A stretch of 64,000 nucleotides of DNA, taken from Actinomycetota bacterium. GTDB taxonomy: Bacteria > Actinomycetota > Acidimicrobiia > Acidimicrobiales > VFJN01. Positions 5,939 to 61,494 of the stretch are shown one piece after another. The stretch covers positions 14,619 through 78,618 of the forward strand of contig JBKPAA010000039.1 in the NCBI GenBank assembly GCA_046726215.1, given 5' to 3'. Below the pieces are notes generated by a model. That model was not told where the DNA came from. It ran no database searches and saw only the letters and a list, made by a program, of their open reading frames with translations. Position numbers and translations under genes: made by a program. The first letter of the stretch is position 1, and each line of letters starts with the position of its first letter.

Positions 5939-6816
5939 TCGCCGCTCGCCACGGTGACGATGATCGGGAGCCACACGTCGGGCGCACCGGCCACGAGCAG
6001 GACACCGTGGTACACACCGCCGGGCACGTCAGCGCCGACGTCGGCGCCGACGGCGGCCACGACCAACACGCCCCGGCTCGACCGGGCCGGGAGCTCTTCG
6101 AGCGACGGCGGATCGAACCCGATGCAGGACGCCGGAAGCGTGCTGCCATCGTGGCTGCGCAGGTCGCCGCTGTGCGGGCGCAGGCCCAGCATCGGCTCGG
6201 CCGTGCCGTTGTGCAGCCAGACCTCAGCCGAGCCACTGCGGCCCGAGGGTCCGTCCGACCCGCCCGCGCGTTCGTCCGACCCGCCCGCGCGTTCGTCCGA
6301 CCCGCCGGGACGGTCGTCGGACCCGCCGACCCGGATGGTGAGGCGCACGGCGCCGGTCGCCGTGCCCCGGCCCACATCCGCCGTGGCGATCGACTCGCCC
6401 CCGGGCCCGAGCCCGCCGTTGGTGCGCGCGACGGCCGCCATCGCCTGCAACCCGCGTTGGAACAGGTCCACCCAGGCGTGCAAGAGGTCGGCCGACGGGA
6501 CGCCGGGGGCCAAGGGACGCGGGGTTCCAGGAGGCGCGCCGGCAGTGCCGTTCGCGCCGGCACCATCGCCATGCGTTGGCTCAGTGGGCGATGGTGGGCC
6601 ACCGCCCGTCCCCGGATCTTGGGGCCTGTCACGGTCGACGGCGCCGATCAGCCGGTCGACCAGCTCGCCGGCAGCGCGCAGCCCACGCCGCTGGATGTCA
6701 CCCAGGGCCGCGGCGTTGGCGCTCGGATCGAGGATCGACAGCCACGGCGACTCGCCACCCCCCTTGTCGTGTCGTCGTTCACCCACCTGGTGCTCCTCAA
6801 CCACGCACCCGCACAT
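5935..6816 (-). CDS. Hypothetical protein with an internal GGSD(E/D)R(A/P) tandem repeat and a beta-rich C-terminus
   Basis: 293-aa ORF with good codon bias, translationally coupled to the polyprenyl synthase. No recognisable catalytic motif. Confidence 0.6.
   Translation of the reverse strand: MCGCVVEEHQVGERRHDKGGGESPWLSILDPSANAAALGDIQRRGLRAAGELVDRLIGAVDRDRPQDPGTGGGPPSPTEPTHGDGAGANGTAGAPPGTPRPLAPGVPSADLLHAWVDLFQRGLQAMAAVARTNGGLGPGGESIATADVGRGTATGAVRLTIRVGGSDDRPGGSDERAGGSDERAGGSDGPSGRSGSAEVWLHNGTAEPMLGLRPHSGDLRSHDGSTLPASCIGFDPPSLEELPARSSRGVLVVAAVGADVGADVPGGVYHGVLLVAGAPDVWLPIIVTVASGE
6253..6330. repeat. 21-bp tandem repeat (~3.7 units) inside CDS 5935-6816
   Basis: The unit gtccgacccgcccgcgcgttc occurs twice exactly (6253-6273, 6274-6294), followed by two diverged units. 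It is in frame and encodes GGSDERA-type heptads on the minus strand. Confidence 0.85.
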
Positions 6817-6898
6817 GCTCCCGCCACCAGCCTGGCCCGGCGCTATCGGATCGGTAGGCTACGCGAGAGGAGTCATGAGGCGGGTGGGCTGACAGGCG

Positions 6899-8539
6899 AT
6901 GAGTGAGATCGGCGATCTGATCGCCATCTTGGGCGCAATCGATAGCGCCGTGCGCGACGACGAAGGGGACGACAGGCGCGCCCAAGTGGCCGCCCTGGTG
7001 AAGGCGTACCGCGAGGGCAACCGATTCGGCTGGTATGACAGCTTCGTCCAGCGTGATGGCAACCAGGGCCTGCCCGACATCGAGACGGCGATGCGCAACC
7101 TGCGTCAGCCGACCAGGTTCGCCGCCATGCTGCCGCGGCGGCTCCTGGTGGTGGCGCTGGCCGCTCGGGTCTTCCCGGACCGGTTCGGACCGCACGGCGA
7201 GGAAGCCGAGGCCTCCCTGAGAGCGCTCACGATCCCGGGCGTGCTGGCGGGACTGCCCCTGCTGCCGACGCCACCGATCGACGAGCCACCCGACGTACCC
7301 GACTTCGGCGACCCGACCCTCCGATCCCAGGCCGAGGAGCTGCTCGCGGCCCTCGCCGACCCCGAGCGGCTCCCACGCGTCGAGGACTGGCACGAATTCC
7401 TGGCCAGTACCTCGCATGTCCTGAGCCCGCAGCTCGCCAGCCTGCCGGCACCCTGCACGACCGCCGTCATCGAGCCGCCGACCGGCGCGGACGATGCGGT
7501 CGTGGTGCTGCGTACCAGCCTCTGCGTGGCGAGCGTCGATCTGGCGGCGCTGTCCGCGGGCTTCCTCGATCCGACGAACTGGCCGGGCTGCAGTCCGTGG
7601 TGGTGCGAGATCCTGCCGGCGCCGGGTGCGGGGCCAGGACTGAATCGATATCTCGAGGTCGTCGCCGCCGATTGCCCGAACCACGTCTTCGAGGTGGCGG
7701 TCTTCCTCGACTTCGCGACCGCCATCGACGTGGAGACCCGCAAGGTCGTCACGTACAACAAGAGCCCCGACCAGAGCGGAATGGTTGGCGGGCTGCGCGC
7801 CAACGACGCGGTCGAGGTTGACCGGGGCGTCATCGACGTCCGCCGGGAGCGGGATCACGTGCGAGTCGAGACCACCAAGCGGATCCGCTTCAGCGACCCC
7901 CTCGACGCTGACGCTCTCTCGGTGATCGCCTGCCTGGTGGGTTACGGGGACGTGGCGGCCGACGTCATCTGCGATTGCTCCGGGGGTCTACCGCAGCCGA
8001 TCGACTGCGATCCCGACGCAGCACCGGCCGGCGGCGCGACATCGGCCGTCGACCGGTTCGTCGACCTGGCGCGGAAGTGTGTGACCGATGCGGGCGACGA
8101 GGCGCGCCGCATCGCCGGTCGGATCGACGAGGGTTCCTATACACCGGAAAAGGCGGCGGAGGATGCCAGCAGGGCCGCGGCTCTCGCGCTCCGAGGATTG
8201 GCGACGCTCGCCACCACCTTCCTCGAGGCCATCAAGGACGTTGCCGGCACGTCGGCCGCTCCGTCCACGCTGCAGTCGGCGCCGTTCGGTTTCCGCAGCG
8301 CACTCCCCGATGACAGCCAGTTGGCACTGGCGGGACCGTTGCGCTCGCCGTACGGCGAACAGATCGAGGTCGCTCGTGTCGAGATCCTGCCCCCGGCGTT
8401 GAGCACCGGTGGTGAGTTCCGGTTGAAGGTCGACATCTCCGGCCTGGAAGGCAGCGCGTACACCGGTGAGGTGACCGCGATGAGCCCGGCGAGCGGCGCA
8501 GAGGTCGGCCGCGTCGACGTCGATGTGATCGTTCCGTGA
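6899..8539 (+). CDS. Hypothetical protein (546 aa), first gene of the cyclase-STAND operon
   Basis: ATG start, consistent codon bias, stop 5 nt before the next gene. Its C-terminal helical segment and beta-rich tail resemble those of 5935-6816 and 14451-14956. Confidence 0.7.
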   Translation: MSEIGDLIAILGAIDSAVRDDEGDDRRAQVAALVKAYREGNRFGWYDSFVQRDGNQGLPDIETAMRNLRQPTRFAAMLPRRLLVVALAARVFPDRFGPHGEEAEASLRALTIPGVLAGLPLLPTPPIDEPPDVPDFGDPTLRSQAEELLAALADPERLPRVEDWHEFLASTSHVLSPQLASLPAPCTTAVIEPPTGADDAVVVLRTSLCVASVDLAALSAGFLDPTNWPGCSPWWCEILPAPGAGPGLNRYLEVVAADCPNHVFEVAVFLDFATAIDVETRKVVTYNKSPDQSGMVGGLRANDAVEVDRGVIDVRRERDHVRVETTKRIRFSDPLDADALSVIACLVGYGDVAADVICDCSGGLPQPIDCDPDAAPAGGATSAVDRFVDLARKCVTDAGDEARRIAGRIDEGSYTPEKAAEDASRAAALALRGLATLATTFLEAIKDVAGTSAAPSTLQSAPFGFRSALPDDSQLALAGPLRSPYGEQIEVARVEILPPALSTGGEFRLKVDISGLEGSAYTGEVTAMSPASGAEVGRVDVDVIVP

Positions 8540-8543
8540 GGTC

Positions 8544-11500
8544 ATGACCGACGCCACCGACCGGTCCGCGGCGATCGACGAGCTGCTCGACCGCGCGGTG
8601 GCGGCGCTGAACCGCGGCGACGTCACGACCGCACACGACCTGGCCGAGCGGGTCCTGGCCGCGGACACCTCCAACCGGGACGCAGCGGCGCTTCTCGGCG
8701 TGGAGGGGCCGTCCGCGGGTGAGCTCCGACGCCTCTCCCTGCTGTTCTGCGACCTCGTCGGCTCGACGGAGCTGTCGGCCCGCCACGAGCCCGAGACCTA
8801 CCGGACCCTGATCAGGCGCTACCAGGCGGTGTGCCGGGAGGTGGTCGAGGAGCGGTATGGGGGCCACATCTCTCACGTTGCCGGCGACGGAATGCTGGCG
8901 GTCTTCGGCCTACCGATTCCCCACGAGAACGATGCCGAGCGGGCCGCCCGCGCCGGCCTCGACATCATGCGGGAGCTGCGCTGGCTGTCCGCACAGGTGG
9001 AGGCGGCGCTCGGCGAGCGCCTCGAGGCGCGGGCTGCTGTGCACCGGGGCCTCGTCTATCTCGACGTCGAGGAGGACGAGGTCTACGGGCTGGCCGCCAA
9101 TGTGGTGGCGCGGCTCCAATCGCTGGCGGCGCCCGGGACCGTCGTCATGTCCGACGATGTCCGCGAGATCGTGGGCCCGCTGTTCGAGACCGAGGCGGGG
9201 CCGGCGCAGCGAGCGAAGGGGATCGAAGAGCCGCTGCAACCCCACCGGGTCGTCGCCGCGCACCCCGAACAGCCGACACGGGGTCGGCGCTGGGAGGCCG
9301 CCCTCGTGGACCGTCACGACGAGCTGGCGCGCCTGCGCCAGCAGTGGCTCCAAGCGCGGCGCGGTGGCGACCAACGACCTGCCGTCGTCCACCTCGTAGG
9401 TGAGGCCGGCATCGGCAAGTCGCGGCTCGCGGCCGTCCTGGCCGAGGAAGCTCGGACGGCTGGAGCGTCGTGCCTGCAACTGCTGGCGTCGCCCTTCCAT
9501 GCCGAGGCGAGCTTCCACGCGATCCGCGCCCTGATCGAGGCGCGGAGCGGCATCGCGGTGGACGCCGCTCCCGGCGAGCGGCTGGCGCTGCTGGAGCAGG
9601 AGATCGCTGCGGTGGGACTGGATCCGGGTGAATCGGTGCCGCTGCTGGCACCCATCCTCGGCGTTCCTCCCTACGCGGGCTACCAGGAGGCGGCGCTGGA
9701 AGGGCGCAAGTTGCACGAGGCGATCGTCGCGGCCGCCGCCCGGTACCTCATCGCGTCGCTCGGTTTGGGACCGGCCCTGCTGCTCGTCGAGGATCTGCAC
9801 TGGTGCGACGAGTCGACGCTCGATGTGATCGCTCTGGTTCTCGGCGCCGATCGCGGCGACCTGCTGGTCGTCACCACCTCGAGGGACGGGCCACCGGCGT
9901 CGCTCGGTCGCGGCCACGTGATCGGGCTGTCGACCCTCAACGATCATGCCGCCGACGAGCTGGTCAGGTCCCTCGACCCCGCACTCGATGACAACGCATG
10001 CCGCGTCCTCGTCGACCGCGGTGACGGGATGCCGTTGTACCTCGAAGAGCTCGTGCGTGGAGCCGCCCCCGCTGGGGGAATCGCCGACATACGGCGGACA
10101 CCCGGAATCGGTCCGGTCGCAGAGGGCATTGGGGCGGCGGTGTCCGTAGGCCCTCCGTCCTCCGTGCCCGAGGCGCTCTACGAGCCGCTCGTGGCTCGCC
10201 TCCACGCCACGGGGTCGGGACTGCCCGTGGCGTCCGCGGCAGCGGCCATCGGCCGGGACGTCGATCACCAGGTACTCGCGCAGGTGGTCGACCTGCCCGA
10301 TCCCGACCTCGAGGCTGGCCTGGAAGCATTGCTCGGCGGCTTGATCCTCGAACGCGTGCTCGGTGAAGGACAGCGCTACCGGTTCCGCCACGAGCTGCTG
10401 CGGGTCGTGGCGTACGAGCTGCAACCACCGTCTCGCCGGCGTGAGCTGCACGGCCGCGTGGCCGCCGCGCTTGCGCGGGACACGCCCGCCGCACCGGCGG
10501 TGGACTGGCCCCTCGTCGCCGGACACTACGACGCCGCGGGGCAGGTCGCCGATGCGATCACGGCGTACCAGGCGGCTGCGGATGCGGCGCGCCGGCTCGG
10601 CGCCCTCGGCGACGCGCGGGCGCTTCTCGGCCGGGGGATCGAGCTCGTCCCCAGCGTCCCGGACAGTGCGGCGCGGCGGTCCTACGAGGTGGCGTTGAGG
10701 CTCCGGCGGGGCTTCCTGGTGGCGTCGGCCGAGGGACCCAGTTCCCCCGAGGCCGTCCAGGACTACGAGCGCTGCCTCGAGCTGACGCTGGGCGACAGCA
10801 CCAGCGACGACATGTTCAACACCCTCATCCCGCTGTGGGGCTACTACATACTGCGGGGTGACCTGGAGCGCGCTCAGCAGGTCGCGGAGATGCTCCGCGC
10901 CGGAGTCGCCCGCGGGCGGGACCACTACTGGCCCGACAACGAGGCGGCGTTCGGCACGATCCGCTGGTTCGCCGGCGACTTCGGCGCCGCTCACGACCAG
11001 CTCGAGTCTGCGGTCCATGGCGTCGCCACCCGGCCCGTCAGCCCGGACTATGCCGCGACCTACTTCATGCCGTTCGACGGCCCGGCATCGGCGCACGCGC
11101 ACCTGGCGGTGGCGCGGTTCATGCGGGGAGACGTCCGGGGTGCGGACGCGCAGTTCGACGCCGGGCGGCACCGTTGCGACGCGATCGAGTTCCCCCTCGG
11201 GCCGTTCACCGCCGCCGAGGTCCACTCGTACGCGGCATGGACCTTGATCGAGCGCGGCGAGCTGGACCGGGCGGCCGGCGCGGTCGCGGCAGTGACCGAC
11301 GTCGCCGAGCGGCACGGCTTCGACTTCTGGGCGCTGGTGGCGGCAACCGAACAGGCAACGATCGGCGCGTTGCGGGCACTCGAGGCCGAGCCGGGCGACA
11401 CCGCGGCGCTGGCGGCGCACGCCCAGAGCCTCGAGGGCCTGTGTGCCACGTGGAAGCTCGTCGACGTGGCCCTGTTCCTGCCCGTGTTCACGGCCATGGC

Positions 11501-31020: not shown

Positions 31021-31094
31021 GCCCTCGTAGCTCAGGTGGATAGAGCGACCGCCTCCTAAGCGGTAGGCCACAGGTTCGAGTCCTGTCGGGGGCA
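31021..31094 (+). tRNA. tRNA-Arg (anticodon CCT)
   Basis: Manual cloverleaf. Acceptor GCCCTCG/CGGGGGC (one G-U), D arm GCTC-AGGTGGATA-GAGC, anticodon arm ACCGC-CTCCTAA-GCGGT, T arm ACAGG-TTCGAGT-CCTGT, discriminator A. CCA is not encoded. Confidence 0.9.
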
Positions 31095-31146
31095 CCGCGA
31101 AAGTGCCAACTAGATGGCGGCTCGGCCTCGGGAGGCAGGTCGATCG

Positions 31147-31727: not shown

Positions 31728-32747
31728 GTGGGTGAGCGCCCGACGATCAAGGATGTCGCCGCTGAGGCGGGCGTGAGCCTCAAGACCGTCTCGCGGGTGC
31801 TCAATGGCGAGCACCCGGTTGCGCCCACCACGGCGTTCCGGGTGCTCGCTGCCGTCGAGTCGCTCGGCTACCAGCGGCACGAGGCGGCCGCCAGCCTCCG
31901 CCGGAGCGGTCAGTCGACCTCGATCATCGGTCTCGTCATCGAGGACGTGGCCAACCCCTTCTACTCGGTGCTCGCCCGCGCAGTCGAGGAGGTGGCCCGC
32001 GACAACGACTATCTGCTCATGGTGGCCAGCTCCGACGAGGACCCCGGGCAGGAGATCGAGGTGATCCGGGCATTCTGCGCCCGGCGCGTCGACGGGCTCG
32101 TCGTCGTGCCGACGGGCGCCGATCACTCGTTCCTGCGGGCGGAAGTGGACGCCGGTACGGCGGTCGTCTTCGTCGACCGCCCGCCGGTCGGCCTCGACAG
32201 CGACACCGTGGTGGCGGCCAACGCCCGCGGCACGGCCGACGCGGTCAACCACCTGCTCGAGCAGGGTCATCGACAGATCGGCTACCTCGGCGACGACCCC
32301 GCCATCTACACGGCGGCCGAACGCTACGGCGGCTACCGCCAAGCCCTAGAGGCGGCAGGTGTCGAACTCGACGAGTCGCTCGTGCGGCTGGGCCTGGGCG
32401 ACGTCGCCGCCGCCGAGGCCTCGGCCGACGAGCTGATGCACCGCGCCGACCCTCCGACCGCTCTGTTCGGCGGCAACAACCGGCTCACGATCGGTGCCCT
32501 GCGGGCGAGCCGCCGGAACGGCCGCCGGGTGAGCGTCGTGGGCTTCGACGACTTCGAGCTGGCGGACATGCTCGAGCCCCCGGTGACCGTCGTGTCCCAG
32601 GATGCGTCGGCGCTGGGCCGCACGGCGGCCGAGCTGGTGTTCCGCCGGCTCGGAGGCGACCGCCGTCCGGCGCAGCAGGTGATGCTCGGCACGAGTCTCG
32701 TCATCCGGGGTTCTGCCAGAGTCTCAGCGCAGGGGCCCAAGTCGTGA
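31728..32747 (+). CDS. LacI-family transcriptional regulator
   Basis: N-terminal HTH TIKDVAAEAGVSLKTVSRVLNG plus a periplasmic-binding-protein-like sugar-binding core. Confidence 0.9.
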   Translation: MGERPTIKDVAAEAGVSLKTVSRVLNGEHPVAPTTAFRVLAAVESLGYQRHEAAASLRRSGQSTSIIGLVIEDVANPFYSVLARAVEEVARDNDYLLMVASSDEDPGQEIEVIRAFCARRVDGLVVVPTGADHSFLRAEVDAGTAVVFVDRPPVGLDSDTVVAANARGTADAVNHLLEQGHRQIGYLGDDPAIYTAAERYGGYRQALEAAGVELDESLVRLGLGDVAAAEASADELMHRADPPTALFGGNNRLTIGALRASRRNGRRVSVVGFDDFELADMLEPPVTVVSQDASALGRTAAELVFRRLGGDRRPAQQVMLGTSLVIRGSARVSAQGPKS

Positions 32748-32836
32748 GCTTCGGCCCTGGGACCACCCCGGCGGATGCCGCGACGCTGGTCGCGCCCAGC
32801 CGGCGCTGGTTGGCTCGCGATGGGGGGTCCGGAATT

Positions 32837-32862
32837 CGGCCGCGGCACCAGGGCCGCGGCCG
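32837..32862 (+). terminator. Hairpin between lacI-like gene and SBP gene
   Basis: A 9-bp GC stem cggccgcgg / ccgcggccg with an 8-nt loop. No clear U-tract. Confidence 0.35.
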
Positions 32863-32897
32863 CGACAGCTATCCACCAACCAACAGGGGGTTCCCCG

Positions 32898-34247
32898 ATG
32901 GACCGACTAGCCATCCACATCACCAAGCGGTCGGGCGCGGCTGGCCTGCGACCTCGCCGCTGGCGGCGTGCGCTCGCCTTGGCCTTCGCCGCCCTGCTCG
33001 TCACCGCCACGGCCTGCGGCGACGACGACGATGACGAAGGCGGTGCTGCGGACACCGGAGAGGAGGCGGCCGGCGAGTTCGAGTTTTTCTCCTGGTGGAC
33101 CGGCGGCGGTGACTCCGAGGGCAAGGAGGCGCTGCTCGATCTCTTCCAGAAGCAGAACCCGGACATCGAGATCGTGGACTCGGCGGTCGCCGGTGGCGCC
33201 GGCACCAATGCCCAGGCCGTGCTGGCCGACCGCCTGCTGGCCGACGACCCGCCCGACTCGTACCAGCGACACGCGGGAGCGGAGCTGCTGGCTGACATCG
33301 AGGCCGGGGAGGTCGAGGATCTGACGTCCCTGTGGGAGGATGAGGGCTGGTTCGATGTCTTCCCCGACACGCTGGTCGACATGATCACGGTCGACGACAA
33401 GATCTACTCGGTCCCTGTGAACGTCCACCGGTCAAACCTCATGTGGTACAACCCGGCCGTCCTGGAGGAGGCGGGCATCGCCGCACCCCCGGCCACATGG
33501 GACGAGTTCCTGACCCAGGCCGAGACGCTCGAGGCCGCCGGCAAGGTGCCGCTGACCATCGGGCCGGCATGGACGCAGGAGCACCTGCTCGAGAACGTCC
33601 TGCTCGGCGAGCTCGGGGCGGACGCCTATGCCGGGTTGTGGGACGGCAGCACCGACTGGGAGTCGCCGGAGGTGATCGCCGCCCTCGACACCTACACCGA
33701 GGTGCTGGGCCACACCAACCTCGGTTCGGCCGCCGCCGACTGGCAGCCGGCGCTCGATCCGGTGATCGAGGGCGACGCCGCCTACAACGTGATGGGCGAC
33801 TGGGCCGTGGCGTACTTCGAGACGGAGAAGGGCCTCACGTTCGAGGAGGGCTACAACGTTGCGCTCGCGCCGGGAACCGAAGGCGTGTTCAACTTCCTGT
33901 CCGACAGCTTCACCCTGCCGGTCGACGCGCCGCATCGCGACGTTGCGATCGAGTGGCTGAAGCTCGCCGGCTCCAAGGAGGGCCAGGACACCTTCAACCC
34001 GATCAAGGGCTCGATCCCGGCACGGACCGACCCAGACGAGTCGTTGTACACGGGCTACCTGGCGCAGCCGCTGGCCGACTGGAACAACCCGGACATGACG
34101 GTCGTCGGATCGCTCGCCCACGGGGCGGTGGCCGACAACGCCTGGAAGGCCGAGATCGACTCGGCGCTGGGGGAGTTCGTCGAGAGCGGCGACTCGGCGG
34201 CGTTCGCCTCGGCGGTGAAGCAGGCCTACGAGGACACCCAGCAGTAA
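32898..34247 (+). CDS. Sugar ABC transporter substrate-binding lipoprotein (CUT1 type)
   Basis: Lipobox LVTATAC followed by an acidic linker. FFSWWTGGGDSEGKEALLDLF is typical of CUT1 SBPs. Confidence 0.88.
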   Translation: MDRLAIHITKRSGAAGLRPRRWRRALALAFAALLVTATACGDDDDDEGGAADTGEEAAGEFEFFSWWTGGGDSEGKEALLDLFQKQNPDIEIVDSAVAGGAGTNAQAVLADRLLADDPPDSYQRHAGAELLADIEAGEVEDLTSLWEDEGWFDVFPDTLVDMITVDDKIYSVPVNVHRSNLMWYNPAVLEEAGIAAPPATWDEFLTQAETLEAAGKVPLTIGPAWTQEHLLENVLLGELGADAYAGLWDGSTDWESPEVIAALDTYTEVLGHTNLGSAAADWQPALDPVIEGDAAYNVMGDWAVAYFETEKGLTFEEGYNVALAPGTEGVFNFLSDSFTLPVDAPHRDVAIEWLKLAGSKEGQDTFNPIKGSIPARTDPDESLYTGYLAQPLADWNNPDMTVVGSLAHGAVADNAWKAEIDSALGEFVESGDSAAFASAVKQAYEDTQQ

Positions 34248-37530: not shown

Positions 37531-37725
37531 AGGTGCAAGAACAGGTGCAATACACCAGCGGAATCCATGGACGTGGCGTCACCTGATGGAGGCTTCCGCC
37601 GACGACAACCAGCTCAGCGGACTGGAGCCGATGCCCTGGACGATCGGCCGCAGTCTGCTAGGCGGTAGGCCGCAGGTTCGAGTCCTGCCGGGGGCACCAC
37701 AAAAGTGCTGGTAGATGTGGGTTTC
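37531..37725 (+). repeat. att-like module A (left arm + diverged tRNA-Arg 3' half)
   Basis: Left arm with aggtgcaagaacaggtgcaat and gacgacaaccagctcagcgga..cctggacgatcgg. tRNA-like segment 37655-37699 (ctgctaggcggtaggccgcaggttcgagtcctgccgggggcacca), followed by the aaagtgctggtagatg flank. Confidence 0.75.
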
Positions 37726-43861: not shown

Positions 43862-44000
43862 CTCCTAAGCGGTAGGCCGCAGGTTCGAGTCCTGCCGGGG
43901 GCACGGCAAAGGTGCTGGTGGATGGTTTCCCGAGCCTGGCCACCCGAGGTGTACCGGTGTGCTTGCGAGCGGCATCCAGGTGCAGTACACCTCTTGGTAC
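43862..44000 (+). repeat. att-like module B (tRNA-Arg 3' half + right arm)
   Basis: 43862-43904 is ctcctaagcggtaggccgcaggttcgagtcctgccgggggcac. It is followed by the flank aaaggtgctggtggatgg and right-arm repeats caggtgcagtacac and ggtacaccc/ggtatacc. No conserved left arm. Confidence 0.75.
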
Positions 44001-53750: not shown

Positions 53751-54030
53751 CAGGTGCAAGAGCAGGTGCAATGGTCCAGCGAAACCCACGGACTCGGTGG
53801 CACTCCGTGGACGACGTCGCTGGCGACAGCCAGCTCAGTGGACTGCAGGGGACCGCCTGGACGATCGGCCACGGTCTCCTAAGCGGTAGGCCGCAGGTTC
53901 GAGTCCTGCCGGGGGCACCGCGAAGGTGCTGATAGGTGGTGTGAAGCGCGCCGAGGCGACAGACTCAGGTGCAAGTGCAGGTGAAATGCCTGGTGGTCGG
54001 TACGCCTCGTCGCCTCGTCGGTACGCCTCG
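53751..54030 (+). repeat. att-like module C (left arm + tRNA-Arg 3' half + right arm)
   Basis: Left arm caggtgcaagagcaggtgcaat ... gacagccagctcagtgga..cctggacgatcgg. Core 53876-53919. Right arm caggtgcaagtgcaggtgaaat plus two tcggtacgcctcg repeats. Confidence 0.75.
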
Positions 54031-57006: not shown

Positions 57007-57192
57007 CTACCTGGCTCTGGCTCGATACTCCTCAAGGGCGTCCGCAGGAATGTGGGCGATGCCGTTGACCATCACGTAGCGGAGCTCGTGCTGGTAGATG
57101 AGTCGGATGATCTCGCGCGTAGAGACGCCTAGGCGCCGAGCCGCCTCGGACGCCCGCAGCGGCTCAGTGGTTGTCTGGTCCCGGCCAGTCAT
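57007..57192 (-). CDS. Excisionase/MerR-like helix-turn-helix DNA-binding protein (61 aa)
   Basis: LRASEAARRLGVSTREIIRLIYQHELRYVMVNGIAHIPADALEEY fits the Xis-type HTH_17 pattern. Confidence 0.7.
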   Translation of the reverse strand: MTGRDQTTTEPLRASEAARRLGVSTREIIRLIYQHELRYVMVNGIAHIPADALEEYRARAR

Positions 57193-57370
57193 CGAATCCA
57201 AGCTTATGGCTCAGGATGCGGATCTGATGTTCGACAGTGACGACGAGGCTGAGTTGGTTGGCGGTGATGAGCGCGTCACGGGCGTCGTCGAGGTCGGCGA
57301 GCAGCGCGAGTGCCTCGTCGAGTTCGTACCAGACTTGACGAGGCGGCTCTCGCCGGGCCGGATCGCTCAT
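57164..57370 (-). CDS. Small hypothetical protein (68 aa)
   Basis: ATG 57370 is the first gene inward from att-like module D. Helical, acidic sequence (YELDEALALLADLDDARDALITANQL). Confidence 0.5.
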   Translation of the reverse strand: MSDPARREPPRQVWYELDEALALLADLDDARDALITANQLSLVVTVEHQIRILSHKLGFDDWPGPDNH

Positions 57371-57416: not shown

Positions 57417-57690
57417 CAGGTGCAATAGCGGGTGCAATACTTCAGCGCAGTCCGTGGACTCGGCCACACGGGATGAATGATCTGGCCGACGACACCCAGC
57501 TCAGCGGACACCAGCGAACGCCCTGGACGATCGGTCACGGTCTCCTAAGCGGTAGGCCGCAGGTTCGAGTCCTGCCGGGGGCACCGTTGCCGGGGGCACC
57601 GCGAAACTGCTTGTGAGGGCGCTACGGCTTCGTTGGGAGGTGAACCGTCAGGTGCAGTACACATGTCGGTACGCCCGTAGGCCCAGGGAT
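57417..57690 (+). repeat. att-like module D (left arm + tRNA-Arg 3' half with internal duplication + right arm)
   Basis: Left arm caggtgcaatagcgggtgcaat ... gacgacacccagctcagcgga..cctggacgatcgg. Core 57542-57600, containing a duplicated gccgggggcacc separated by gtt. Right arm caggtgcagtacac and cggtacgcc. Confidence 0.75.
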
Positions 57691-57894
57691 CGCGGATCGG
57701 CGGGATGCGGCGGCCACCAGCGCGACTGTATCGGCGACGTCGGCCGACGCATGAGCGAGCGGCCGGACCTGAGCTGGCCCGAGGCGAGGATGTGGTCCGA
57801 CACCCGCGTCGGCGGATCGCGAGCGCCCTGAGCCGAGCCGGTCGATCCGGTCGATCCGCGGCTACAATGCCCGGCAGGCGGATCGGCGGGCACA

Positions 57895-58254
57895 TTGGCG
57901 GAATTCAGAATCCTGGGGACCTTCCAGGTCATCTCCAACGGCGCGAGCCTTCAGCTGGGCCCGCGGAAGCAGCGTGCCCTCCTGGCGATCCTGCTCCTGA
58001 ACGTCAATCAGATCGTTTCCACCGACCTCATCGACGTCATCTGGGGAGGCCGCGCCCCGAGATCGGCGGCCCGTTCGTTGCAGATCTTTGTCTCGGAGGT
58101 GCGGCGGATCCTTTCCGAGCTTCGGATGCTGGGCTCGTTCGACGTCTGGGGCACTGACGGGGTCGTCGGTGTGCGTGTGGACGCCCACCGCTTTGGTGGC
58201 GGGATGGGCGGCAGCTGGCACCGAGCCCGACCTTGCGGGTCCGGCTGTGGTTGA
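57895..58254 (+). CDS. SARP/OmpR-type winged-helix DNA-binding domain ORF (119 aa; possibly the detached N-terminus of the next gene)
   Basis: FRILGTFQVISNGASLQLGPRKQRALLAILLLN..VSTDLIDVIWG..SLQIFVSEVRRIL..VDAHRF matches the AfsR/SARP N-terminal pattern. It ends in a different frame, 8 nt after a candidate GTG of the next gene. Confidence 0.6.
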   Translation: MAEFRILGTFQVISNGASLQLGPRKQRALLAILLLNVNQIVSTDLIDVIWGGRAPRSAARSLQIFVSEVRRILSELRMLGSFDVWGTDGVVGVRVDAHRFGGGMGGSWHRARPCGSGCG

Positions 58255-61006
58255 GCAGGGCACGGCGGCCCGCGGCGCTACGGACGGCTGGTGCCCGCGC
58301 ACGTTCCTGATGACCGACATCGTCGATTCGGTGTCGCTGTGGGAGCGCGACCCGGTGGCGATGTCGCAGGCGGTGGCGTGGCACGACACGGTCATCCAGG
58401 ACGCGGTCGATGCTGCGGGCGGCCAGATGCTGAGAACCAAGGGTGAGGGCGACTCGACGTTCTCGGTCTTCGAACACCCTGCCGGTGCACTTGCCGCGGC
58501 GGCGGATGTCCAAGAGGCGGTTACCGGCGAGCCGTGGCCGTCGATGATGGCGGTGCGGGTGCGCGTCGGCGTGCACACCGGGGATGCGGAGCCGCGTGAC
58601 GGCGACTGGTACGGGCCGGCGGTGAACCGTGCCGCCCGGCTGCGGGCTCTGGCCGACGGCGGGCAGACACTCGTGTCGGGGGTGAGCGCAGGTCTGGTGG
58701 CCGATCGGATGCCCAAGACGGTTCGGCTGCTGTATCTCGGGCGGCGGGTCCTGCGCGGCATCGAGCGGCCCGAAGAGGTATGGGAGCTGGTTCGAGCTGA
58801 CGACCCGAGAATGGCCATTCCGATCTGGGTCAGGGTCGGCGAGCTGCCGGTCGCGCGTACGCGCTTCGTTGGTCGTACCGAGGACCTCGACGATCTCGCG
58901 GAACTGATCCAAACCGAACAGCTGGTCACGCTCACCGGGCCCGGGGGTAGCGGAAAGACCAGATTGGCGCTCGAGGTGGCGAGGTGCGCTCGACGACGAG
59001 GCGTGCGGGTTTGGCTGGCCGAGCTGGCGCCGTTGCGAGACCCGGGTTTGGTGGCCCAGGCGGTTGCCAAGGCGATCGGCCTCGAAACCGGACCAGATCC
59101 GCTGGAGGAACTGCTTGCTCAAGCAGACACGCTTGCCGGGGTTTTGGTGCTCGACAACTGCGAGCACCTGCTCGACGCCTGTGCAGCGCTCACCGAACGG
59201 TTGCTGGTGGCTGCGTCTGACATCCGGGTGCTGGCCACGAGCCGGGAGCCGCTGCGTCTGACCGGAGAGCGAGAGTGGCCCGTTCGATCCCTGGACGTAC
59301 CGGACGAGTCGCTACGGGACCCAGCCGGACTGGCTCGAGTCGAGTCGGTCCAGTTGCTGATCGACCGGGCCCGAGCAGTCCGGCCCGACTTGGATGTCGG
59401 CCAGGATGACGTCATGCCGCTCGTGCAAATCTGCCGCGCTCTCGATGGGGTTCCACTGGCGATCGAGTTGGCAGCCAGCCGACTGCGCTCGCTCGGTGTC
59501 GCTGAGCTGGCCGCCCGACTTGGTGACCAGCTGGCGACGCTCGCACGGCCCATATCCACCTGCCGGGACGACGCCCGGCACCGGTCCCTTCGCATGACCC
59601 TCGATTGGAGCTACGAGCTTCTGACCGAAGAGCAACGCAAAGTTGCCCAGCGCCTGTCCGTGTTCGCTGGCGGGTTCCGCGTCGATGCCGTCGAGGCCGT
59701 GTGCGATAGCGGCGTCGACGTGCTCGACAGCGTCGAGGAGCTGGTTGCCAAGTCCCTGCTCAGCTTCGACGGCACGACCGCCCGGTACCGGCTGCTCGAA
59801 CCGCTCCGCCAGTATCTTGCCGAGCGCTTGGCCGCATCCGGCACGACCGAGGTCGCTCGACGGGCGCACGGGGAGTGGACGGCGAGTCTTTGCCGGCGGT
59901 TGGGCTTCGGCCTGCTGCAGGATCTCAGGGCCCGCAGCACCCGACTCCGCGAGGAGAGCGCCAACGTCGAGGTGGCCCTGCACTGGGCGCTCGAACACGG
60001 CGAACACGAGACTGCGTTGCGAATCGTCGGATCGCTCGGCCAGTACTGGTTCTTCAACGACAACGCTGCCGGCGACCGCTGGTGCGCCGCGGTGATCGAG
60101 GCCAGCGCGTCAGCCCCTCCTCGGCGGCGAGCGCCGGCGCTACTGAGCGCTGGCATGGTGGCCCAGAACGATCAGGCTTGGGACCGGTCGCTGGCCTGGC
60201 TCCACGAGGCACTGGCCATCTACCGGGCCGAACAGGTGGCCCCAGGCCAGGCGGCGGCCCTGTTCTGGCTAGGACGTGCGCACGGCGACCCGGCGGAAGC
60301 CAAACGCTGCTTCGGCGAGAGCCTCGAGCTGTCCATGCAGCTCGGCGAGCGCGTTGGAGGCGGCATGTGTCGAGTCTTCATCAGCGTGCTGGCGGCCCGG
60401 GACGGAGACCTGGACGAGGCGGTGCGGCTGGCGGAACAGGTCGTCGAGGAATGCTGTGCGAGCGCGGTCCACTATCCGGTGGGCCAAGCACTGGTCCTCC
60501 TCGCGTCCATCGCACACCGTCGCGGCCAGGACGACGCCGCTCGCACGTTCCTCCGCGACGCGGTGACGCACAGCCGAGACGTCGACGACCGCCGGCAGCT
60601 GCCCGCGGTGCTGATCGATCTGGCCGCGCAGGAAGCAAGCATGGGACATGGCGCCGAGGCGCTCCAGGCCCTCGCAGAGTCGTCGCAGCTGGATGAGCAG
60701 ATAGGACGACTGCCAAGCCGGTCCTACCAACTCGCCGTCGCGGCCTGGGTGCATCTGGCGCGCGACGAACGGGTGCTGGCGATCTCAGCGCTGGGCGGCT
60801 ACGACGCGCACCCCAGCGAGTTCGCCATCCCGCCCTTCGGCAGGATCGGTGGGCACGTCAACTGGCTCGACCCTGCAGCCATGGCGGCCATGCGAGCCAG
60901 GCTGGACCCGGACGCGGTGGCCGCGGCCGCCGCCATGGCACGCGCCAGATCGCTCGACGGACTCATCGATGAGCTGATCATCCAGCCAGCCGAGGACGCC
61001 AAGTGA
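58247..61006 (+). CDS. Class III nucleotide cyclase domain - NB-ARC-like STAND NTPase - TPR protein
   Basis: Cyclase motifs RTFLMTDIVDS, KGEGDSTFSVF, RVGVHTGDAE and GPAVNRAARL. Walker A GPGGSGKTRLALE, Walker B VLVLDNCEHL, then VLATSREPL. TPR-like C-terminus. The 5' end is uncertain (track ORF starts at 58088). Confidence 0.85.
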   Translation: MVEQGTAARGATDGWCPRTFLMTDIVDSVSLWERDPVAMSQAVAWHDTVIQDAVDAAGGQMLRTKGEGDSTFSVFEHPAGALAAAADVQEAVTGEPWPSMMAVRVRVGVHTGDAEPRDGDWYGPAVNRAARLRALADGGQTLVSGVSAGLVADRMPKTVRLLYLGRRVLRGIERPEEVWELVRADDPRMAIPIWVRVGELPVARTRFVGRTEDLDDLAELIQTEQLVTLTGPGGSGKTRLALEVARCARRRGVRVWLAELAPLRDPGLVAQAVAKAIGLETGPDPLEELLAQADTLAGVLVLDNCEHLLDACAALTERLLVAASDIRVLATSREPLRLTGEREWPVRSLDVPDESLRDPAGLARVESVQLLIDRARAVRPDLDVGQDDVMPLVQICRALDGVPLAIELAASRLRSLGVAELAARLGDQLATLARPISTCRDDARHRSLRMTLDWSYELLTEEQRKVAQRLSVFAGGFRVDAVEAVCDSGVDVLDSVEELVAKSLLSFDGTTARYRLLEPLRQYLAERLAASGTTEVARRAHGEWTASLCRRLGFGLLQDLRARSTRLREESANVEVALHWALEHGEHETALRIVGSLGQYWFFNDNAAGDRWCAAVIEASASAPPRRRAPALLSAGMVAQNDQAWDRSLAWLHEALAIYRAEQVAPGQAAALFWLGRAHGDPAEAKRCFGESLELSMQLGERVGGGMCRVFISVLAARDGDLDEAVRLAEQVVEECCASAVHYPVGQALVLLASIAHRRGQDDAARTFLRDAVTHSRDVDDRRQLPAVLIDLAAQEASMGHGAEALQALAESSQLDEQIGRLPSRSYQLAVAAWVHLARDERVLAISALGGYDAHPSEFAIPPFGRIGGHVNWLDPAAMAAMRARLDPDAVAAAAAMARARSLDGLIDELIIQPAEDAK

Positions 61007-61494
61007 TCCCGCTCCACCGTCTTGCTGGCGTTGCTGATGACTCACGGGCTCCCGGTCATGAGCGCTTGTCCGTCCGATCGCTGGCTCACGACGGTGTCGT
61101 GTTGCTGGGAACTCCAGACCAGATCGCCGACGCCATCCGTCGGGACCGGGCGCTCGCCGAGTACGGGGACTTCGCCTCGTCCCACATCGACACTGACCAC
61201 GTTCGCTGGGCCGGCGACGTCGCCCAAGCGATCCTCAACGCCATCGCCGCCGACCTGGCCGCCGAGCCAGGGCGGCAGCAACAAGGCGACGCTGAGCGCC
61301 ACCACTCCCGGCTCCGCGTCGACGTCGTCACCGGCCTTCCCGTGGGCACAGGCTCACACCGTGAGCGCTCAAACTGCTCCTGGAAGGCGGCCTGCTCAGG
61401 CGTCGGCGGAACGCCGCCCTGTATCACCAGGATCGTGGCCATGTCACCCCTCGACCACATAGTGGTCTCGGGGCTCTGGCTGGACGGCCCCTGA
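61003..61494 (+). CDS. Hypothetical protein
   Basis: GTG overlaps the upstream stop (GTGA). Good codon bias only in the central part (GTPDQIADAIRRDRALAEYGDF...AILNAIAADLAAE). Confidence 0.35.
   Translation: MIPLHRLAGVADDSRAPGHERLSVRSLAHDGVVLLGTPDQIADAIRRDRALAEYGDFASSHIDTDHVRWAGDVAQAILNAIAADLAAEPGRQQQGDAERHHSRLRVDVVTGLPVGTGSHRERSNCSWKAACSGVGGTPPCITRIVAMSPLDHIVVSGLWLDGP

Follow-up and report, generated by a model that had tools for sequence, protein, structure and literature searches.

A neutrally decaying SARP relic, probably kept as a translated leader, overlaps an intact class III cyclase-STAND gene

The short ORF that precedes a cyclase-STAND-TPR gene in the window, the 64,000-nucleotide stretch of Actinomycetota DNA analysed here, drifts neutrally and no longer encodes a functional protein. 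Comparison with relatives identifies this ORF, referred to below as ORF A, as the remnant of a lost N-terminal SARP domain, separated from the cyclase frame by a frameshift that all examined members of its clade share. The only reason for its retention is probably that its translation, as a leader, delivers ribosomes to the intact downstream gene, an explanation that, taken as a whole, we regard as likely. The part that describes a relic followed by a functional gene is held with high confidence, and the part that invokes coupling between them is given an even chance. A wider interpretation is put forward tentatively, namely that a leader ORF has been exapted irrespective of its sequence and that the family may constitute a class of AfsR-like, NLR-type regulators not described before, with DNA binding and cAMP synthesis as outputs.

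Layout of the locus and ancestry of ORF A

The initial annotation described two ORFs, 57895-58254 and a 919-residue frame beginning at GTG 58247 and open back to 58088, and all of its statements about the sequence were correct. The open frame of the cyclase gene spans 58088-61006 on the + strand (972 aa), and the TGA of ORF A at 58252-58254 creates an 8-nt overlap with the gene. Deletion of one base within 58195-58246 yields a continuous ORF of 1036 aa, so that a single frameshift would fuse the two ORFs as had been stated. The position just outside an att-like module was also confirmed; the locus begins about 260 nt past the last (57559-57585) of four direct copies of the tRNA-Arg(CCT) 3' end. 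It is proposed to form one transcription unit, 57847-61006, with the following features.

57847-57894, + strand: promoter-like region and 5' leader, with a -10-like TACAAT (57863-57868) and inverted-repeat arms (57847-57859 and 57878-57890)
57895-58254, + strand: ORF A, relic of a SARP N-terminus; 119 codons, TTG start; proposed translated leader ORF
57898-58116, + strand: wHTH fragment, family profile positions 2-74; recognition-helix region kept, wing missing
58117-58179, + strand: second copy of the duplicated SARP N-terminal strands, profile positions 2-22, occupying the position of the wing
58177-58246, + strand: junction, with VDAHRF in frame 1, the +1 change, AAGTEPD in frame 2 and the BTAD deletion breakpoint
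58247-58254, + strand: stop/start overlap GTGGTTGA, with the GTG that opens the cyclase gene and the TGA that closes ORF A
58247-61006, + strand: functional cyclase gene, GTG start, 919 aa, encoding a class III adenylyl cyclase, a STAND NTPase, a helical/winged-helix module and a TPR sensor

ORF A had been described as an AfsR/SARP-like DNA-binding domain. Descent from a SARP gene was supported by BLASTP, which aligned it with the N-terminus of the intact relative P0013 at 40% identity (E=2e-17), and by a match of residues 3-75 to the NCBIfam AfsR model (E=6.6e-10). However, the domain is incomplete. When ORF A was searched with the family profile using hmmsearch, the wHTH fragment scored 53.0 bits over positions 2-74, at which point the profile halts and restarts at position 2, giving a second match to positions 2-22 with an i-E of 3.6e-5. 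The Pfam Trans_reg_C model covered only positions 8-59 of 77 and scored 25.2 bits, under the cut-off of 26.2. In a blastn comparison, nucleotides 58117-58168 were 84.6% identical over 52 nt to the first codons of the intact L021 gene (E=9e-13). The SARP-like part ends with VDAHRF after the duplicated copy. About 140 residues that constitute the BTAD following the wHTH in P0012 and P0013 are missing, and the BTAD family (PF03704) gave no Pfam match in either ORF A or the cyclase ORF. The homology in the original description was therefore upheld, but what is present is a truncated wHTH joined to a duplicated N-terminal fragment and, judged by these comparisons, not a working SARP.

An intact wHTH, BTAD, cyclase, NTPase and TPR domain is found in relatives at 55-67% identity. 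Proteins of this kind, about 1180 aa long (Trans_reg_C, BTAD, cyclase, AAA_16, TPR), make up 39 of the top 120 homologues, and long and short forms are interleaved in the family tree. The intact relatives carry VDA.RFE..V.AAG[AT]EPDP, a BTAD of about 140 aa and then ..VD.HG....DGWYPRTFL, while in the junction alignment AAG[AT]EPDP abuts the pre-cyclase linker directly. Since the intact relatives carry BTAD and cyclase together, the BTAD was deleted in this clade and not, as had been supposed, replaced by the cyclase. The frame break was found between HRF (58186-58194) and AAGTEPD (58211-58231), the first residues of the BTAD region, in agreement with its earlier placement near 58195-58215. The idea of a split gene holds to the extent that both ORFs come from one gene with a SARP wHTH before the cyclase-NTPase-TPR part; attribution of the split to an assembly indel does not (see below).

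The selective constraint on the two ORFs is very different. In 11 comparisons the dN/dS of ORF A ranged from 0.64 to 3.5 with a median near 1.1, compared to 0.22-0.45 for the cyclase gene. The ratio was about 1 in both 57898-58194 and 58196-58297 and was 0.22-0.33 in the NTPase-TPR part. The nucleotide divergence of ORF A roughly matches the dS measured for the downstream gene, and conserved SARP residues are substituted in relatives; for example, the tryptophan of the LW motif is gone in L003 and L004. Purifying selection on the ORF A protein was thus not detected.

The upstream block, the overlap and competing explanations

The onset of homology among relatives is abrupt, at 57847-57852 in L002, L003, L004, L006, L009 and L011. 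The blocks 57850-57868 and 57878-57902, the latter including the TTG, are almost invariant, compared to 75-87% identity in the flanking relic. A simple sigma-70 scan upstream of ORF A did not find a full -35/-10 pair. About 11 independent assemblies (JGI, ENA and GTDB), for the most part soil and Acidimicrobiales MAGs, show the same two-frame layout. Of the 11 lineages in which the conserved start and the shared TGA could both be read, 10 keep ORF A open to that TGA; L001, the start of which lies off the contig, is also open to the TGA and stands outside this count. In 11 of 15 distinct sequences (with the start of L001 off-contig), the frame opened by the conserved start runs to a stop codon that overlaps the start of the downstream gene. 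This arrangement of the orthologues as two separate ORFs speaks against the fusion proposed in the initial annotation. The 8-nt overlap occurs in the window, L002, L004/5, L006, L007/8, L009, L011, L016 and L143. Conservation thus concerns the promoter-like block, the initiation region at the TTG, an uninterrupted ORF A frame and the overlap of stop and start.

The interior of the relic is far less constant. It is missing or shortened in L007/8, L009, L010, L016, L142 and L143, and in L010 and L016 homology is lost just upstream of the stop/start overlap. Four independent deletions, each with its own end points, have cut ORF A down to 42, 63, 70 or 90 codons. The four are all in frame, for which the chance is (1/3)^4 or about 0.012, and all keep both the 5' end of ORF A and the 3' overlap. 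Two more variants, L003 and L142, are in-frame fusions. No nonsense substitutions were found in ORF A in 10 lineages, for which the simulated probability of remaining stop-free was 0.30-0.71 per lineage; the joint probability is near 1e-3 under a star tree, a value that overstates the significance because the lineages are assumed to be independent; the whole comparison drew on about 15 sequences. From the in-frame deletions, the lack of nonsense substitutions and the conserved overlap, we infer a translated leader ORF that is coupled to the cyclase gene, and the block upstream may be its promoter. The arrangement resembles that of translationally coupled overlapping genes (ATGA or GTGnnTGA, with termination-reinitiation) in that the stop lies 5 nt past the first base of the start codon and is conserved. 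It differs in that the upstream ORF is a neutrally evolving remnant of the N-terminal domain of the same gene, and the coupling is here a presumed one.

The possibility was considered that the relic is pure junk, the cyclase gene having its own promoter and initiation inside or after it, with the open frame and the overlap as leftovers of high G+C content. High-GC DNA does keep long ORFs by chance (stop-free 0.3-0.7 per lineage). Shine-Dalgarno-like pairing is equally weak before the TTG and the GTG (between about -5.5 and -6 kcal/mol, close to the background's 25th percentile), and therefore the GTG, with a potential no worse than that of the TTG, could initiate alone. A search for RNA structure occluding GTG 58247 revealed nothing special (z = 0.12). 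Two relatives manage without the arrangement: the upstream sequence differs in L010, and in L012 a premature stop lies 89 nt upstream and the start position reads CTG, although the gene is intact. However, the TTG region and the -10-like block are conspicuous in a neutral background for being nearly invariant, the large deletions preserve frame, 5' end and overlap in four of four cases, and L144, the most basal member, independently has a short upstream ORF that derives from a SARP and overlaps the next start as GTGA. On balance this explanation is considered unlikely.

It is highly improbable that ORF A encodes a small DNA-binding protein with a function of its own, in a two-gene system with the cyclase-STAND protein. 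The ORF is intact, begins at a strongly conserved initiation region and is open in most relatives, and the helix region of the wHTH is retained, but a dN/dS of about 1, a Pfam score under the cut-off, the missing wing and the replacement of conserved SARP residues such as the LW tryptophan in L003 and L004 are difficult to reconcile with function. Moreover, independent deletions take 30-78 of 120 codons while the downstream gene is still under purifying selection. The earlier notion of the wHTH ORF as a functional partner gene, reduced to 42-90 codons or replaced in relatives, was abandoned for these reasons.

Programmed +1 ribosomal frameshifting could join ORF A to the cyclase frame and give a fusion protein as the product. 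The cyclase frame is indeed +1 relative to ORF A, the frames overlap over 58088-58254, the overlap ends at a stop codon as in the prfB shift site, and fused variants (L003, L142) occur. However, once the L016 deletion is taken into account, the variants share just about 18 nt before the TGA, the pre-stop codon varies (GGT, GGA, GGC) and none of its forms permits +1 re-pairing. A stimulatory structure was not found, and the residues added at the N-terminus would form a peptide that evolves neutrally and does not fold. Frameshifting is accordingly regarded as very doubtful. An assembly or sequencing indel in a true single wHTH-cyclase-NTPase-TPR ORF of about 1036 aa is scarcely credible: the region is G-rich, one base less in 58195-58246 restores the single ORF and a read-through ORF of 1047 aa is called in the relative P0003/L003, but the identical +1 offset is found in every clade member examined, from unrelated samples and assemblers, the L003 fusion arose by a private 1-nt deletion in the most degraded wHTH among full-length copies (30 bits vs. 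53-63), and the fused N-terminus still lacks wing and BTAD.

In the preferred reading, that of a relic serving as a translated leader, the ancestor was a large SARP-type regulator gene with the order wHTH-BTAD-cyclase-STAND NTPase-TPR. In the ancestor of the clade, the wing of the wHTH was replaced by the duplicated N-terminal fragment and the BTAD of about 140 residues was deleted, and a +1 frameshift that split the remnant from the cyclase frame became fixed. The unit retained the ancestral promoter-like region and TTG initiation region. Ribosomes would load at TTG 57895 and translate 119 meaningless codons, a process that may shield the mRNA against premature termination, and would terminate at TGA 58252-58254 before starting again at GTG 58247 inside the overlap to produce the 919-aa protein. 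If this is correct, the ruined N-terminal domain supplies the promoter, ribosome loading and termination-reinitiation for the cyclase-STAND gene, and selection acts on the reading frame and end points of ORF A, not on the encoded peptide. The SARP module would also have been lost repeatedly in the parent family, as suggested by the interleaved long and short forms in the tree.

The cyclase-STAND-TPR protein

The domains of the 919-aa protein were delimited as follows.

58292-58795, + strand: class III cyclase catalytic domain, residues 16-183, with D24, K65, D69, D120, N127 and R131
58877-59281, + strand: P-loop NTPase core of the STAND type, residues 211-345 (AAA_16, AAA_22, nSTAND1)
58937-58960, + strand: Walker A, GPGGSGKT
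59141-59158, + strand: Walker B, VLVLDN
59234-59248, + strand: ATSRE
59321-59839, + strand: helical/winged-helix part of the STAND module, residues 359-531, the presumed place of HTH_77
59846-60811, + strand: sensor of TPR-like helical repeats, residues 534-855; a helical tail at the C-terminus continues to 61003

The assignment of the middle domain to the class III cyclases was confirmed. Guanylate_cyc (PF00211) scored 22.6 bits, barely over the cut-off of 21.9. A phmmer search of PDB sequences returned 3mr7 (E=1.7e-17) and Ma1120 (4.5e-12), as well as GRESAG4 and Rv1900c, and in Foldseek the predicted fold matched Ma1120 with a TM of 0.87-0.90 and an rmsd of about 2.3 Å. Both the domain with its fold and all six catalytic residues are present, and each of the six is conserved in 113-120 of 121 family sequences. 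By analogy to Rv1625c, we take D24 and D69 to be metal-binding, K65 and D120 substrate-specifying, and N127 and R131 the transition-state residues.

In the NTPase core AAA_16 scored 32.6 bits, equal to the cut-off, and nSTAND1 25.7 bits, under the cut-off. The motifs GPGGSGKT, VLVLDNCEH and ATSRE, which had been recognised at the outset, are invariant or nearly so in 120 homologues, and the Walker lysine and aspartate are invariant. The label NB-ARC-like is appropriate at the level of the fold, but NB-ARC sensu stricto (PF00931) had no Pfam match in the 919-aa protein at E<=0.01. HTH_77 (PF25872) is precomputed for nearly all homologues, without coordinates, and residues 359-531 have predicted secondary structure with high pLDDT. 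TPR_12 matched in three stretches with 47.7 bits (cut-off 30.1), and the helix-pair repeats of residues 534-855 have a pLDDT of mostly 85-95. The best whole-chain fold match of the NTPase-TPR part was the STAND-TPR protein 6mfv (E=3.9e-13, 695 columns); the plant NLRs ZAR1 and NRC2 were also matched. The protein thus has the P-loop with a helical/winged-helix module and the C-terminal TPR sensor of a STAND/NLR protein. Sequence and fold matches together confirm the cyclase and STAND domains, the motifs of which are intact.

The protein probably functions by oligomerising in response to a ligand and ATP and so turning on the synthesis of cAMP. The 919-aa protein would act as a STAND (NLR-like) switch, in which the TPR domain senses a ligand and the NTPase module exchanges nucleotide and oligomerises. 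Oligomerisation would pair the N-terminal class III cyclase domains into catalytic dimers, with cAMP as the presumed product.

The suggestion that the protein is a defence sensor was not borne out. PADLOC gave no match to anti-phage STAND families, just a weak mad8 score of 17.8 bits on the P-loop. The genes next to the relatives are of many kinds, for the most part ordinary ones of metabolism or regulation (sigma factors, an ABC transporter, epimerases, MoxR). Neither a defence model nor the island context of anti-phage STAND proteins such as Avs and bNACHT applied.

The mycobacterial cyclase-ATPase-TPR-LuxR proteins Rv0386, Rv1358 and Rv2488c, class III cyclases fused to STAND/LAL-type ATPases, reportedly have the same domain order as the 919-aa protein, with the cyclase at the N-terminus and then the P-loop STAND ATPase and helical or TPR repeats. 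Unlike the Rv0386-type proteins, the window protein has no C-terminal LuxR/GerE HTH; Pfam found none in the 972-aa ORF, the C-terminus of which is helical with no HTH family match. Further differences are that the canonical Lys/Asp substrate pair is present, that the close family includes N-terminal SARP members and that the hosts are uncultured Acidimicrobiales. The AfsR-like large SARPs and SARP-LALs (AfsR, PolY; PimR, SanG, FilR) are similar in that the intact relatives, P0012 and P0013 among them, start with wHTH and BTAD, followed by a STAND ATPase and TPRs. In contrast to these, the family has a complete cyclase domain with intact catalytic residues between BTAD and ATPase, and the window copy has no BTAD and only the non-functional wHTH remnant. 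No description of the wHTH-BTAD-cyclase-STAND-TPR architecture was found in the searchable literature.

The stand-alone cyclases Ma1120, Rv1900c and 3mr7 share the fold (TM 0.84-0.90, rmsd 1.8-2.8 Å, 26-30% identity) and also have the metal Asp pair, the Lys/Asp pair, the Asn and the Arg, whereas the domain described here forms the output module at the N-terminus of a STAND protein of 919 aa. The segment from the beta-strand after GVHTG to DWYG, compared by eye, is presumably shorter than that of enzymes of the Rv1625c type. STAND-TPR ATPases and NLRs (PH0952-type 6mfv, ZAR1, NRC and the logic of MalT/AfsR) are alike in the NOD module with Walker A and B, the helical/winged-helix part and the C-terminal repeat sensor, but the output here is a nucleotide cyclase in place of a DNA-binding, CARD/TIR or nuclease domain.

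Layout of the locus and loss of the SARP module

The locus very probably represents a functional cyclase-STAND-TPR gene that lies behind what is left of its own lost SARP domain, a remnant in neutral decay. The arrangement described in the initial annotation, with ORF A at 57895-58254, a GTG at 58247 and a second frame open from 58088, was seen in the ORF table and the sequence.

Reading frames of the locus
57895-58254, +, ORF A: TTG start, 119 codons, TGA stop (ORF table and sequence)
58088 to 61006, +, second frame, open (ORF table)
58247-61006, +, cyclase gene: GTG eight nucleotides before the ORF A stop, 919 codons

In Pfam searches, the match of Trans_reg_C to ORF A was marginal (25.2 bits, cut-off 26.2) and covered only profile positions 8-59 of 77, so that the wing of the winged helix was unmatched. 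The long ORF matched Guanylate_cyc (22.6 bits, cut-off 21.9), AAA_16 exactly at its cut-off (32.6 bits) and TPR_12 (47.7 bits), with weaker matches to nSTAND1 and AAA_22. Removal of one base between 58195 and 58246, a single frameshift as first proposed, gave a conceptual fusion ORF of 1036 aa.

This fusion was used as the query in a search of the protein collection, and the best 120 matches (P0001-P0120) were considered. The search revealed a large homologous family with two architectures. The long form, about 39 of the 120 best matches, is about 1180 aa in length with 55-67% identity and has the domains Trans_reg_C, BTAD, Guanylate_cyc, AAA_16, HTH_77 and TPR_12. Most of the remaining matches in the best 120 are of a short form of about 920 aa that begins at the cyclase domain. 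The window protein falls in a tight clade, P0001-P0011, of 73-94% identity and about 920-950 aa. The cyclase had originally been thought to replace the BTAD; however, the intact forms place it between the BTAD and the NTPase, and this idea was abandoned.

By reading and alignment, the intact proteins pass from ...GYVLEVDP..VDA.RFE..V.AAG[AT]EPDP.RRL.. into about 140 aa of BTAD, after which they continue as ..RILDHDPTL....VD.HG....DGWYPRTFLLTDIVDS. In the window, VDAHRF in frame 1 is followed by AAAGTEPDLAG-PAVVEQGTAARGATDGWCPRTFLMTDIVDS in frame 2. Alignment of the two junctions indicates that the BTAD was deleted in the window clade and that one extra base parts the two frames.

The possibility was considered, as in the initial annotation, that the split reflects an indel introduced during assembly. 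The DNA around close relatives (loci designated L001, L002 and so on) came from metagenomes in JGI and ENA and from genomes in GTDB, the majority being MAGs of uncultured Acidimicrobiales/Actinomycetota, and the upstream regions were aligned. The frame offset between HRF and AAGTEPD was identical in every clade member retaining the region. Its recurrence in relatives from JGI, ENA and GTDB makes an assembly error very unlikely and dates fixation of the frameshift to the ancestor shared by the clade. Two loci are in-frame fusions of the relic to the cyclase frame: L003 (P0003, 1047 aa) owes its single ORF solely to a 1-nt deletion of its own near window position 58234, and L142 (P0007) is fused via a private deletion. 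The contig of another relative, L012 (JBKPDT010000240.1), is labelled Candidatus Methylomirabilota; it is probably mis-binned, because both the window and Actinomycetota/Acidimicrobiales MAG contigs match it at 92% identity over 3.6 kb.

A family profile that covers the N-terminal 300 residues and was built from 39 intact relatives matched ORF A twice, first with positions 2-74 against residues 3-74 (53 bits) and again with positions 2-22 against residues 75-95. At the DNA level, 58117-58168 matched the opening codons of the intact L021 gene with 84.6% identity (E=9e-13). The repeated profile match and the DNA identity thus place a second copy of the N-terminal strands where the wing should be, and ORF A consists of a truncated wHTH, a duplicated fragment and VDAHRF. 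Its initial identification as a SARP-like DNA-binding domain is correct as to ancestry; the domain is not complete, its wing being displaced by the duplicated fragment.

A neighbour-joining tree of the shared region, calculated without support values, intermixed long and short forms, a pattern that fits and suggests repeated loss of the SARP module in the family. No relics were detected upstream of the distant short-form homologues L013, L014 and L017-L019. Several paralogues of the family P0001-P0120 occur within single MAGs. The MAG MFD06742.bin.2.133 holds paralogues at 65% and 85% identity, and at L002 a second AAA_16/TPR gene (5500-8358) lies 2 kb away.

Constraint on the remnant and its 5' region

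Selection was evaluated by pairwise Nei-Gojobori estimates of dN/dS.

dN/dS of each relative against the window
Relic, frame 1 (57898-58194): 0.64-3.5, median about 1.1
Frame-2 stretch (58196-58297): 0.49-1.56
Cyclase domain: 0.22-0.45
NTPase-TPR: 0.22-0.33

The nucleotide divergence of the relic was about equal to the synonymous divergence of the cyclase gene; in L003, the relic has an identity of 0.81 and hence a distance of about 0.22, compared with a gene dS of 0.19-0.21. Profile scores of the relic across the clade ranged from 63 bits down to 6 bits. As judged from sequence comparison, the ORF A peptide is without selection and the constrained protein starts close to DGW.PRTFL.

The relatives were also translated from the conserved TTG or GTG. 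In the window, L002, L004/5, L006 and L011, the ORF extends for about 120 codons to a TGA inside GTGGTTGA, and in L001, where the start lies beyond the contig edge, the same frame is open to that TGA. Four independent deletion variants with different end points, L016 (42 codons), L143 (63), L007/8 (70) and L009 (90), are all in frame and reach the same TGA; the chance of four in-frame deletions out of four is about 0.012. The basal L144 has a short SARP-derived ORF whose end overlaps the downstream start as GTGA. L012 is the only copy in which this ORF is broken; it meets a stop prematurely, and its start position reads CTG. In L010 a different upstream sequence is joined 12 nt before the GTG and another ORF there ends 18 nt upstream. 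When the observed number and spectrum of substitutions were placed on the consensus, the simulated probability of remaining stop-free was 0.30-0.71 per lineage, with a product near 1e-3 that assumes independent lineages and so overstates the case. Constraint appears to fall on the frame and its ends, not on the peptide.

Homology among the relatives starts abruptly at 57847-57852 and has a variable 3' end, 0-100 nt past the stop codon; the flanking genes differ in almost every relative. The first 55 nt contain two almost invariant blocks, 57850-57868, GTCGATCCGCG(T)CTAC(A/C)AT, with a -10-like TAnnnT, and 57878-57902, GCGGATCGGCGGGCACATTGGCGGAA, with the TTG start. Identity is lower in the relic (75-87%) and at third codon positions of the gene (82%). 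Together the blocks make a 13-nt inverted repeat. The repeat, CCGGTCGATCCGC / GCGGATCGGCGGG (window 57842-57890), brackets the -10-like TACAAT and its arms are nearly invariant in the relatives; the same region has a 9-nt tandem duplication, GGTCGATCC x2, in the window alone. The TCGA-containing motif recalls SARP heptamer boxes and may be a candidate former autoregulatory site. A sigma-70 consensus scan found no full promoter, the sole promoter support being the conserved -10-like hexamer. The conserved 18-mer GGCGGGCAYAKTGGCGGA matched 120 stretches in a metagenome scan, none of which (0/120) had the relic or the cyclase gene, and these are therefore chance matches. A transposable element was also considered; the conserved 3.2-kb unit does not look like one, because no terminal repeats were found at its ends and the 3' homology ends are variable.

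Open frames, in-frame deletions and a conserved initiation region form the pattern expected of a translated leader coupled to the downstream gene. Shine-Dalgarno pairing before TTG 57895 and GTG 58247 was weak and similar at both in 11 loci. Furthermore, RNA folding of 58190-58300 was no more stable than shuffled sequence (z = 0.12) and gave no evidence of a structure hiding the GTG or stimulating frameshifting. Neither result bears on coupling one way or the other, and translational coupling of the leader to the cyclase gene is given about an even chance. Retention of the remnant as a promoter and translated leader is likewise a finely balanced proposition. In L142, a CAGG-microhomology deletion about 150 nt ahead of the cyclase start joins the tRNA-Gly 3' flank to GGCGGGCAC.TTG, so that the -10-like block is lost; through a second deletion the start of the relic runs in frame into the cyclase, and expression of this copy would depend on read-through from the tRNA gene. 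At the other end of the window gene, a 163-codon ORF (61003-61494, +) has a GTG start overlapping the cyclase-gene stop (GTGA). It had no match in Pfam and is probably not a conserved gene, because homology among relatives stops 0-100 nt past the cyclase-gene stop.

In annotation, the label of SARP regulator should be kept off ORF A, and the locus should not be repaired into a fusion gene. The locus offers a clear, datable case of domain loss in a multidomain signalling protein with the relic still legible, and hints that the relic is kept for being translated, not for its product.

The cyclase-STAND-TPR protein

The class III cyclase domain named in the initial annotation was confirmed. Pfam Guanylate_cyc was above its cut-off, sequence comparison with solved class III cyclases matched 3mr7 (1.7e-17) as well as GRESAG4, Ma1120, Rv1900c and Rv1264, and in Foldseek the fold matched Ma1120 (TM 0.87-0.90). 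The metal-binding aspartates D24 and D69, the Lys/Asp pair K65 and D120, and N127 and R131 are all present, each conserved in 113-120 of 121 sequences.

In an AlphaFold model that drew on 40 homologues (mean pLDDT 79.4), the cyclase domain occupies residues 16-183 and a disordered linker residues 191-210; a P-loop core and a helical/winged-helix part follow, and helical repeats extend as far as about residue 855. A PDB sequence search with the NTPase-TPR part returned only spurious RecA P-loop matches, and a fold search was therefore needed. The best whole-chain Foldseek match was the STAND-TPR protein 6mfv (E=3.9e-13), and the NOD matched plant NLRs. In the Walker A and B motifs, the lysine and the aspartate never vary; the rest of both motifs and ATSRE are invariant or nearly so. 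The P-loop is NB-ARC-like, as first described, only at the level of the fold, since Pfam NB-ARC had no match in the long ORF. PADLOC defence models gave nothing meaningful with either ORF and lend no support to the suggested defence sensor.

Class III cyclase active sites form across a dimer interface. By the general STAND/NLR mechanism, ligand bound by the repeats would permit nucleotide exchange and oligomerisation, bringing the N-terminal output domains together. Since the active sites lie across the interface, induced proximity of the cyclase domains would switch on cAMP synthesis. Such activation would be the most economical mechanism, given what is established for the two families.

In mycobacteria, Rv0386, Rv1358 and Rv2488c unite cyclase, ATPase, TPR and LuxR HTH. 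The window protein also has cyclase, ATPase and TPR, but Pfam found no LuxR HTH match in the long ORF. SARPs are classed as small (wHTH and BTAD), medium (those and NB-ARC) or large (those and TPR), with SARP-LALs such as PimR, SanG and FilR forming a further class (2024 review, PMC10972967), and AfsR has been treated as an NLR-type switch whose executor domain is a SARP (2026 preprint). In contrast to these classes, the intact relatives add a complete cyclase to the SARP and STAND-TPR modules, an architecture for which no description was found in the searchable literature. The locus itself does not amount to a novel type of system. It draws attention to a family, abundant in soil Acidimicrobiales, in which a predicted catalytically intact adenylyl cyclase is inserted between AfsR-like SARP and STAND modules; such a family would link mycobacterial cyclase-LAL proteins and Streptomyces SARP-LAL regulators. 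Should cyclase dimerisation be gated by the STAND module, NLR-type activation could be followed in this family in a simple way, through an enzymatic read-out.

Genomic surroundings

The last 27 nt of a tRNA-Arg(CCT) at 31021-31096 are directly repeated at 37672-37698, 43879-43905, 53893-53919 and 57559-57585, four copies in the window against a chance expectation of none. About 150-200 nt of shared sequence lie in front of each copy, and the whole looks like a tandem array of att-like repeats from elements integrated at tRNA-Arg, although the first segment begins with ordinary-looking LacI-family and sugar-binding-protein genes (31728-34247), not an integrase. The cyclase unit begins about 260 nt past the last copy, in agreement with its initial placement just outside an att-like module. 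The last array segment, a small mobile or conflict element of about 3.6 kb adjoining the locus, carries the genes listed below.

Genes of the last array segment
54195-56645, -, AEP-TOTE primase fused to ResIII/DEAD helicase (Pfam 253.9 bits; PADLOC PrimPol 289 bits)
57007-57201, -, HTH_17 excisionase-like protein, 64 aa

The cyclase unit repeatedly adjoins tRNA or att-like sequence, but on different sides among the relatives. In L001 (3344-3370) and L010 (5842-6028) the gene has an att-like module just downstream, in L012 (2179-2363) the module is upstream, as in the window, and a tRNA-Gly(GCC) lies upstream in L016 (2589-2664) and L142 (directly before the relic). In L011, an orthologue of the LacI-family gene of the first array segment (7337-8757, 94% identity) lies within 1.5 kb after the cyclase gene; the window copy sits right after the tRNA-Arg.
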